Source: Escherichia coli (GTDB lineage: Bacteria; Pseudomonadota; Gammaproteobacteria; Enterobacterales; Enterobacteriaceae). Taken from it: a stretch of 1,431 bases of DNA. Every line of letters begins with the position of its first letter. The stretch's first letter is position 1. The DNA lies in the NCBI RefSeq assembly GCF_003334385.1, contig NZ_QOWN01000113.1; one strand, written 5' to 3'. The notes under the pieces are model-generated. The model was not told the DNA's origin, did no database searches, and saw only the letters and a list, made by a program, of their open reading frames with translations. Shown here in pieces: positions 1-1,431 of the stretch. The position numbers and the translations under genes are program-made.

Positions 1-122
1 CGCTCAAGCAACAGCGCATTCTGGCGCATGATCCGGTAAACACGTTTGGCATTGATCGCAGGCATACCATCAAGTTCGGCCTGTCTGCGAAGCAGCGCCC
101 ATACCCGACGATAACCATACGT
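1..122 (-). pseudogene. insD: Internal fragment of IS2 (IS3 family) transposase orfB/insD; 5' end and insC missing, continues past window start
   Basis: Minus-strand translation of 1-119 reads [40 protein letters not shown], which matches the IS2 InsD protein as I remember it (around residues 46-85). The frame upstream of this ([20 protein letters not shown]) is not InsD, so homology breaks near nt 122/123. No start codon or insC is present. This ORF is not in the supplied track because it runs off the window edge. Confidence 0.75.
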
Positions 123-144
123 GTCACGAACGGTGCAATAGTGA

Positions 145-169
145 TTCTTCCGCAACTTGGGTGGAAGAA
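145..169. repeat. Imperfect inverted repeat / hairpin (TTCTTCCGC-aacttgg-GTGGAAGAA)
   Basis: 145-151 TTCTTCC is the exact reverse complement of 163-169 GGAAGAA. The stem extends to 9 bp with one G-T pair (152/162) and a C-G pair (153/161), around a 7-nt loop. It lies 22 bp right of the IS2 junction and 47 bp upstream of the ORF start. No T-run follows on either strand, so it is not an intrinsic terminator. Confidence 0.4.
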
Positions 170-216
170 AATGGATGAAACTTTCTGGTGAACAAAGATC
201 TAAGCTGTTTTAAGTC

Positions 217-1359
217 ATGGGCAACTCAATGCACTCTCTTAAGACACTTCTACAGTTACCTTGCGGATGGCGATGCAGTCGACAAATTATTAGCTCTGAC
301 GGTATAACCCTCCATCTCCACGGAAAACGCAACACAGCACAATGTCCTGAATGCTTTAAGCGTAGCGACTCTGTTCATAGTTGTCGTCGGCGCCGGATAC
401 AGCATCTACCCTGCTCAGGACATACGCTATGGCTTGTATTTTCCGTCCGCCACTGGTACTGCCGTAACCCGGCTTGTTCACGTAAAATTTTTGCCGAGTC
501 GCTTGCTCCCTTCGCCGGTTCACACCAACAGTCTTCACTGGCGTTACAAAATTTACAACGTCAACTGGGATTAATCGCCGGAGGTGAGGCCGGGAAACGG
601 GTAGCAACGGCAGTGGGTCTCCGTTGCAGTGCTGATACTCTCCTTCGCAGGGTTATCAATACCCCGGAGACGAAACAGTCAGGCGCGCCTCATGTCGGTA
701 TTGATGAGTGGGCGTGGCATCGGGGCCACCGTTACGGTACGTTAATCGTCAATCTTGATACTCACCGTCCCCTCGTCCTGCTTCCCGGCCGTGATCAGCG
801 TACGCTGGCGACCTGGTTCAGAAAATATCCGGAAATACAGATTGTCTCGCGTGATCGCAGTGGAGTCTATGCGACAGCAGCACGTGAAGGTGCACCTCAG
901 GCCAGACAGGTGGCCGATCGATGGCATCTGCTAAAAAATATTGGCGATGCGCCTGAACGAATGATGTACAGACATATACCTCTGATACGTCTTGTTGCCA
1001 GTGAGTTGTCACCAAAGAAATCACCTGATCCAGAACCATCTGTGCCTGCAGCATCGCTCCGTCGTTCGGAACGCCTAAAACAACAAACCCGCAAAAAACG
1101 GCATCAGCGTTGGACAGAGGTTATGGCCCTGCATAACAAGGGATGTAGTTTCAGGGAAATATCCCGTATTACAGGCCTGTCGCGTGTGACAGTCAGTCGC
1201 TGGGGGCGTTCAGGAACATTCCCTGAAATGTCAACCCGGCCTCCAAAGCTAGGGCTTCTGGCCCCATGGAGGGAGTGGTTAAAAGAGCAACGAGAAAGTG
1301 GTAATTATAACGCTAGCCGGATATGGCGGGAAATGGTGGCCCGGGGATTTACAGCATAA
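217..1359 (+). CDS. ISL3-family-like transposase with atypical C-terminus (possibly inactive, chimeric or domesticated)
   Basis: 380-aa ORF with ATG at 217, an in-frame TAA at 211-213 just upstream, and stop TAA at 1360-1362. The N-terminus (LLQLP...CPECFKRSDSVHS...RRIQHLPCSGHTLWLVFSVRHWYCRNPACSRKIFAE) fits the zf-ISL3 pattern. An HTH-like stretch covers aa ~108-146. DDE-core motifs are present: GIDEWAW (Asp at nt 703-705), VSRDRSG (Asp at nt 853-855) and VADRWHLLKN (nt 916-918), comparable to the WDE / MDM / DRFH motifs of ISL3 transposases such as IS1167. No obvious Shine-Dalgarno sequence precedes the ATG. Confidence 0.8.
   Translation: MGNSMHSLKTLLQLPCGWRCSRQIISSDGITLHLHGKRNTAQCPECFKRSDSVHSCRRRRIQHLPCSGHTLWLVFSVRHWYCRNPACSRKIFAESLAPFAGSHQQSSLALQNLQRQLGLIAGGEAGKRVATAVGLRCSADTLLRRVINTPETKQSGAPHVGIDEWAWHRGHRYGTLIVNLDTHRPLVLLPGRDQRTLATWFRKYPEIQIVSRDRSGVYATAAREGAPQARQVADRWHLLKNIGDAPERMMYRHIPLIRLVASELSPKKSPDPEPSVPAASLRRSERLKQQTRKKRHQRWTEVMALHNKGCSFREISRITGLSRVTVSRWGRSGTFPEMSTRPPKLGLLAPWREWLKEQRESGNYNASRIWREMVARGFTA
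343..477 (+). other. Zinc-finger region (CxxC ... CxxxxC) of the ISL3-type N-terminal domain
   Basis: Cys43/Cys46 (CPEC) and Cys82/Cys87 (YCRNPAC) are spaced as in ISL3 transposase zinc fingers, with the conserved HLP..G..L.L....R.W.C block between them. Confidence 0.6.
1108..1206 (+). other. Second, C-terminal helix-turn-helix motif within the transposase-like ORF
   Basis: aa 298-330, RWTEVMALHNKGCSFREISRITGLSRVTVSRWG, has the classic L...G.S.REI....G.SR.TVSRW HTH signature. It is followed by RPPKLGLLAPWREWLKEQRESGNYNASRIWREMVARGF, which resembles the segment after the HTH in IS21 IstA and IS481-type transposases. Confidence 0.55.
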
Positions 1360-1431
1360 GCGCTAACTTAAGGGTTGTGGTATTACGCCTGATATGATTT
1401 AACGTGCCGATGAATTACTCTCACGATAACT

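Follow-up and report, generated by a model that had tools for sequence, protein, structure and literature searches.

The window analysed here, that is, the whole stretch of 1,431 nucleotides of Escherichia coli contig NZ_QOWN01000113.1, consists of an internal piece of IS2 joined directly to the outer left terminus of the ISL3-family element ISEc38, which is in turn interrupted by IS421. It is highly likely that ISEc38 inserted into IS2 and that a later deletion of about 2 kb took the reciprocal junction. The original prediction had proposed a nested or mosaic IS arrangement in accessory DNA, and the position of the junction exactly at the outer terminus of ISEc38, as insertion into IS2 predicts, agrees with nesting.

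An exact look-up of the chimeric 380-aa protein encoded in the window recovered nine contigs, eight of which contain the whole window exactly. The recovered contigs come from several gut-metagenome assemblies and from two E. coli assemblies at NCBI, in which the contigs measure 131 kb and 210 kb; the layout is identical in all complete contigs. The exact protein is present on 45 contigs, labelled E. coli. The features of the window and of the source contig L007 are listed in Table 1; a window coordinate equals the L007 coordinate minus 9784.

Table 1. Features of the window and of the corresponding part of source contig L007
Feature	Window	Strand	L007	Description and evidence
IS2 insD (orfB) internal fragment	1..121	-		IS2 nt 728-608, InsD residues about 65-104; 99-100% identity to IS2 copies
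Hybrid open frame	1..155	-		TTG at 155-153 in the ISEc38 left repeat, in frame across the junction into insD'; minus-strand translation
ATACG, IS2 bases adjoining the ISEc38 terminus	117..121	.		Predicted left copy of the ISEc38 target-site duplication, right copy lost
ISEc38, left 1233 bp	122..1354	+		Left repeat, leader and first 379 of 539 transposase codons; 99.1% over 1234 nt to the intact copy L003
ISEc38 left inverted repeat	122..165	+		About 44 bp, imperfect; aligns with ISEc38 right ends in reverse complement
Truncated ISEc38 transposase ORF, 380 aa	217..1359	+		Last codon and TAA stop from the IS421 left end; ORF list
GGATTTACAG	1345..1354	.		Left copy of the 10-bp IS421 target-site duplication
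IS421 left end (IS4 family, IS186-like)	1355..1431	+		23-bp left repeat CATAAGCGCTAACTTAAGGGTTG at 1355-1377, transposase ATG at 1410
IS2 nt 1331-608			9182-9905	
ISEc38 nt 1-1233			9906-11138	
Complete 1339-bp IS421			11139-12477	GGATTTACAG at both sides
Rest of ISEc38			12477-12997	
N-terminally truncated IS66-family tnpC			12998 onward	Carries nested IS110-family ISEc45

The IS2 remnant and its breakpoint

Positions 1-123 of the window match IS2 with 99.2% identity to the intact 1331-bp copy in L001, on which the IS2 coordinates used here are based, and with 100% identity to an IS2 fragment in L002 (E-values of about 1e-59 to 1e-60). The minus-strand translation of positions 1 to ~123 yields 41 residues in the insD reading frame. 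At the break, IS2 reads ...CCATACGTG/GGCAGCTC, while the window reads ...CCATACGTG/TCACGAAC. The identity with IS2 runs to position 123; since the TG at 122-123 also constitutes the first bases of ISEc38, the true breakpoint lies at 121/122, and the last IS2 base kept is nt 608. The TG is common to IS2 and ISEc38 by chance. An insD fragment on the minus strand with an abrupt end at about 122 had been predicted from the letters of the window, together with a proposal to align positions 1-130 to the IS2 reference; the fragment was found as predicted (99-100% identity, ending at 121-123), and the alignment revealed no IS2 homology past 123. The near-exact match to InsD also stood, but its numbering did not: the Met at window 63-65 corresponds to position 84 of 301 in the NCBIfam IS2 TnpB profile, so the window encodes InsD residues about 65-104 and not ~46-85, a shift of about 19 residues.

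Leftward of the window, the remnant goes on in the source contigs to a total of 724 bp (IS2 nt 608-1331) and ends with an intact right inverted repeat, located at L007 9182. The ORF of the remnant matches the NCBIfam profile NF006918 ('IS2 transposase TnpB') over profile positions 84-301 (E=3e-149, 496.5 bits), which identifies it as InsD (orfB) with the DDE/rve core; truncation of the protein accounts for a score under the full-length cut-off of 597 bits. The left 607 bp, comprising the left repeat, insC, the frameshift site and the first 64 insD codons, are missing from the remnant, and neither the IS2 left repeat nor IS2 nt 1-605 was found within 10 kb on either side in the source contig. 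With one terminal repeat and with neither insC nor the frameshift site, IS2 is represented here by a remnant and not by a complete mobile element.

The whole aligned remnant (726 nt) is 95.6% identical to canonical IS2. The 32 mismatches among these 726 positions (L007 9182-9907) are unevenly spread, with one in nt 606-732, which is the part within the window, and 31 over nt 733-1331. Beyond the window, the remnant thus diverges from canonical IS2 by about 5%. This distribution suggests an IS2 variant or a recombinant copy. The hybrid minus-strand frame that crosses the junction is called as a 248-aa gene in L010 and L011 and as a gene of 218 aa in L007. It is probably not functional, and nothing indicates that it matters. 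No functional role is expected for the IS2 segment, which is ordinary mobile-element debris.

ISEc38, its termini and the IS421 insertion

The gene to the right of the junction is annotated in RefSeq as 'ISL3-like element ISEc38 family transposase', and the Pfam domain DDE_Tnp_ISL3 is recorded on it. The 380-aa ORF matches the NCBIfam ISL3 transposase profile NF033550 with 260.8 bits (cut-off 180) over profile positions 1-251 of 370. The sequence between IS2 and this ORF had been taken for an unrelated spacer, but positions 122-216 are the left inverted repeat and the leader of ISEc38, and identity to other copies of the element begins at 121/122. Two parts make up the left repeat, namely a 21-nt outer tip at 122-142 (TGTCACGAACGGTGCAATAGT) and an ISL3-type inner repeat (GATTCTTCCGCAACTTGGGTGGA). 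The copy shares with intact ISEc38 the left terminus, the N-terminus of the transposase and 99.1% identity; it differs in being split by IS421 after codon 379 and in the absence of the last 21 bp of the right end, as seen in the source contig.

The termini of ISEc38 were set empirically from genomic copies and not from a curated ISfinder reference. The literature on ISEc38 consists mostly of surveys of isolate genomes; in one such survey the element is listed by name and its ends are not described. In nine different sequence contexts the flanks diverge directly outside TGTCA...TGACA, and the base preceding TGTCA differs between copies. The window is matched by 7562 records; in the listed E. 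coli genome matches to ISEc38, the first matching position is 118, 121 or 122. Direct repeats of 5 bp flank four clean insertions (CCATG in L003, TTTGT in L017, AGTAC in L020 and ATTAC in L022, where the insertion splits a zinc-ribbon gene), and a fifth insertion (L021) is flanked by the 6-bp repeat CCTCTG. The 5-bp repeats outside TGTCA...TGACA indicate a mobile unit of 1764 bp that makes a 5-bp duplication and starts at window position 122, so that the terminus of the element lies at the junction itself. The ISL3 family usually makes 8-bp duplications, and 5 bp is unusual. An 8-bp duplication had been expected for the ISL3-like element in the original prediction, but none of the five insertions examined has one; the copies show 5 bp and, in one case, 6 bp. 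A shorter unit of 1722 bp bounded by the inner GGCTCTTCC ends was also considered and was dropped, as the 5-bp repeats flank the outer TGTCA...TGACA in the copies examined. By analogy with the four clean insertions, ATACG at the end of the IS2 piece is predicted to be the left copy of the duplication; no second copy of ATACG was found in the source contigs.

The outer 21-nt tips occur as two sequence types, A (TGTCACGAACGGTGCAATAGT) and B (TGTCAACGACGGATGAAAAGT), whose positions with respect to the transposase gene are exchanged between copies. The window, L003, L017, L018 and L021 have A on the left and B on the right; in L001/L015/L019, L020 and L022 the arrangement is reversed. The inner repeat keeps its own side, both arrangements are accompanied by 5-bp duplications, and copies with swapped tips are otherwise near-identical. 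It is conceivable, though improbable, that the swapping results from site-specific inversion of the core.

Homology to ISEc38 ends at 1354, and the junction with IS421 lies at 1354/1355. The IS421 end present in the window is 96.7-97.8% identical to annotated IS421 copies on plasmids. In the source contig the element is complete, 99.9% identical to the IS421 reference and bounded by perfect 23-bp terminal repeats; its transposase matches the NCBIfam profile NF033592 with 133.3 bits (cut-off 115). The 10-bp sequence preceding IS421 recurs after its right end in L007, where ISEc38 resumes at nt 1224. The terminal repeat, the IS4-family transposase and the duplication of ~10 bp place the element in the IS421/IS186 group, with which it shares the 23-bp repeat, the 10-bp duplication and a run of G-rich sequence directly before the insertion point, and from which it differs in nothing notable. 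The bases upstream of IS421 (CCCGGGGATTTACAG/) resemble IS421 flanks in unrelated plasmids (GGCGGGGATGCATAG/ and GGCGGGGATTTACCC/), a likeness that fits a G-rich target preference. In metagenome contig L012 (2984-3050), conjugation/ICE-type genes take the place of the remaining ISEc38 sequence after the IS421 right end, and there is no matching duplication; either the assembly is chimeric across IS421 or IS421 has mediated a rearrangement. Only IS421 appears to be intact in the nest. IS2 and ISEc38 are immobile here, as each has one usable end and a broken transposase gene.

The right-hand junction and the history of the block

The original prediction had proposed, as proof of insertion, a search for the missing left part of IS2 downstream of position 1431. 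It is absent there: IS421, the rest of ISEc38 and then tnpC of an IS66-family element follow, with no target duplication. The right end of ISEc38 breaks off 21 bp before the outer tip, where it is joined to an internal part of tnpC (L007 12975-13010). The fusion reads ...GCGGAAGAGCC/CTGAAAGTG, whereas intact ISEc38 copies read ...GAGCC/ACTTTT...TGACA and the IS66-family parent reads ...AGTGCC/CTGAAAGTG, the tnpC side of the fusion being ...CTGAAAGTGATCCGC. The 3-bp microhomology GCC is common to both parents at the crossover, which is a signature of illegitimate deletion and not of transposition. The cut in ISEc38 falls exactly on the boundary of the inner ISL3-type repeat (...GCGGAAGAGCC/), a coincidence that may be due to chance. 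As the right end stops exactly at the inner end (...GGAAGAGCC/), ISEc38 might alternatively be regarded as an element with two tiers of ends, namely the outer 21-nt tips and the inner ISL3-type GG(T/C)TCTTCC, and its fusion to the IS66-family element as an inner-end event made by the transposase rather than a random microhomology deletion; we consider this improbable.

The 49 bp to the left of the IS2 right repeat (L007 9133-9181) are the left end of an IS66-family element (GTAAGCGTAAAC...GGTAA; GTAAGCGTAAACCGACC...GAATTGGTAA). The sequence after ISEc38 has the order and orientation of tnpC of the same IS66-family element in plasmids L023 and L016, which carry this element intact. That this element flanks the block left and right with unchanged order and orientation supports nesting over a random mosaic. 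The IS66-family element is annotated as ISEc23-like in the matches; it brackets the block (L007 9133-9181 and 12998-15600) and carries ISEc45. The same IS66::ISEc45 nest occurs on the IncK2/Z plasmids L016 and L023, where an intact IS2 lies about 0.85 kb upstream of it. In the IS66 and IS2 parts that they have in common with the block, these plasmids are only 93-95% identical to it; they provide models of the ancestral arrangement rather than ancestors. Another IS3-family element, 98% identical to one on plasmid L023, occupies L007 7636-8862, with the dispersin gene on one side and the left end of the IS66-family element on the other.

The order of events that we infer is the following. IS2 would have inserted 49 bp inside the left end of the IS66-family element in an E. 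coli accessory region, and ISEc38 would then have transposed into insD between IS2 nt 607 and 608, producing the junction at window 121/122. A later illegitimate deletion of ~2 kb may have joined a point 21 bp within the right tip of ISEc38 to nt ~1384 of the IS66-family element by way of the GCC microhomology; lost with it would be the right tip of ISEc38 and the reciprocal junction, nt 1-607 of IS2 and, from the IS66-family element, tnpA and tnpB together with the first part of tnpC. The insertions of IS421, into the ISEc38 transposase gene with a 10-bp duplication, and of ISEc45 would be separate events. From the exact coincidence of the left junction with the ISEc38 terminus we infer its origin by transposition. 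The identity of every piece, the positions of the breakpoints, the duplication at IS421 and the like-oriented IS66-family flanks are read directly from the sequences.

A junction exactly at the terminus is likewise predicted if a nearby ISEc38 copy transposed intramolecularly, its left end attacking IS2 with an adjacent deletion or inversion, and the fact that neither a reciprocal junction nor a second ATACG was found is compatible with such an event. It needs an extra step, however, as the right end is not at the ISEc38 terminus and a separate deletion is still required, whereas simple nesting and one deletion suffice to explain IS66-family flanks on both sides in the same order and orientation. 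An intramolecular origin of the junction is therefore unlikely. It is also conceivable that IS2 was cut by a deletion or illegitimate recombination that ended at the left end of ISEc38 without transposition, the two to three common bases at 121-123 serving as microhomology. GTG/TG at these positions is indeed common to IS2 and to the ISEc38 end of the window, and on its right side the same block ends in a microhomology deletion. Yet the break coincides with base 1 of an element of 1764 bp, for which the random odds are roughly 1 in 1000 or less, and two shared bases arise by chance once in 16; such a cut is very improbable. An assembly chimera caused by repeats would agree with the layout of L012, which differs after IS421 as repeat collapse would give, but the IS2/ISEc38 junction is identical in eight independently assembled contigs, including the two isolate assemblies (131 kb and 210 kb), and the probability of an artefact is negligible. 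Insertion of ISEc38 into IS2 followed by deletion is the most economical history and the best reading of the block, all of which is bracketed by the IS66-family element. The original prediction had offered insertion and deletion or recombination as exclusive options; each of them seems to have taken place, insertion first and then the deletion of IS2 nt 1-607, and only their exclusivity did not hold.

The expected reciprocal junction would consist of the ISEc38 right tip, ATACG and IS2 from nt 607 down to nt 1 (TGACA-ATACG-TGGGCAGCTCTCC, with TGGGCAGCTCTCC reading from IS2 nt 606 downward). No record among 5426 complete E. coli genomes covers at least 80% of a synthetic junction of the ISEc38 right end, ATACG and IS2, and the pattern had no matches in JGI metagenome contigs. 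An apparent 15-nt extension of IS2 matches into the ISEc38 tip, obtained with the synthetic query, is weak similarity only. As no reciprocal junction was found, the ISEc38 insertion step is deduced from one junction only. In a search with the whole window, neither of its own junctions (IS2/ISEc38 and ISEc38/IS421) was found in one piece in the 5426 complete E. coli genomes or in PLSDB, and the exact 30-mer of the left junction had no matches in a set of one genome per species. The top two-piece matches (H1-H9; L001, L015) are unrelated plasmids with an intact IS2 within about 1 kb of an ISEc38 copy. L002, which carries an IS2 piece and a 75-bp ISEc38 end fragment, was considered as a case of the same junction and rejected, as the order is different.

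Genomic surroundings and significance

The neighbouring genes (L007 2200-7600 and 15636-21143) encode a dispersin-family protein, an FtsX/ABC Aat-like exporter, an AraC-family regulator and chaperone-usher fimbrial proteins; the AraC-family gene comes after the IS66-family element. Some members of the dispersin family are named 'dispersin Aap' by NCBI, and a match to the Pfam Dispersin family was recorded, as were PapD/PapC. No near nucleotide match to the region with the aat-like exporter and dispersin genes was found in the 5426 complete E. coli genomes. In PLSDB, no close nucleotide match to the AraC-family gene was obtained, and the identity of its protein to any entry is at most 45%. The pAA plasmid of enteroaggregative E. 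coli was considered as the context and was dropped, as the genes here are not AggR and aap/aat genes of the classical type and only the kinds of genes are shared. The surroundings resemble the AggR regulon of enteroaggregative E. coli in kind and not in the classical genes; this is a divergent AggR-regulon-like cluster. The cluster is present on dozens to hundreds of draft and metagenome contigs.

The block is comparable with the nested IS arrays of virulence plasmids and islands of E. coli and Shigella, where several IS families are likewise nested, secondary deletions occur and genes of adhesins and regulators adjoin. It differs from these arrays in its neighbourhood, where the cluster of dispersin, Aat-like, AraC and fimbrial genes departs from the classical pAA/AggR set. 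IS2, ISEc38 and IS421 are all known elements, arrays of nested and decayed IS elements are commonplace in the accessory DNA of E. coli, and the finding is in this respect ordinary. Its value lies mainly in annotation: the segment can be labelled as an IS2 remnant (nt 608-1331) in a four-level nest, IS66-family > IS2 > ISEc38 > IS421. The measured ends of ISEc38 and its 5-bp duplication may help IS annotation. Both junctions of the window recur in drafts of isolates and in gut metagenomes and could serve as lineage markers for this accessory region.
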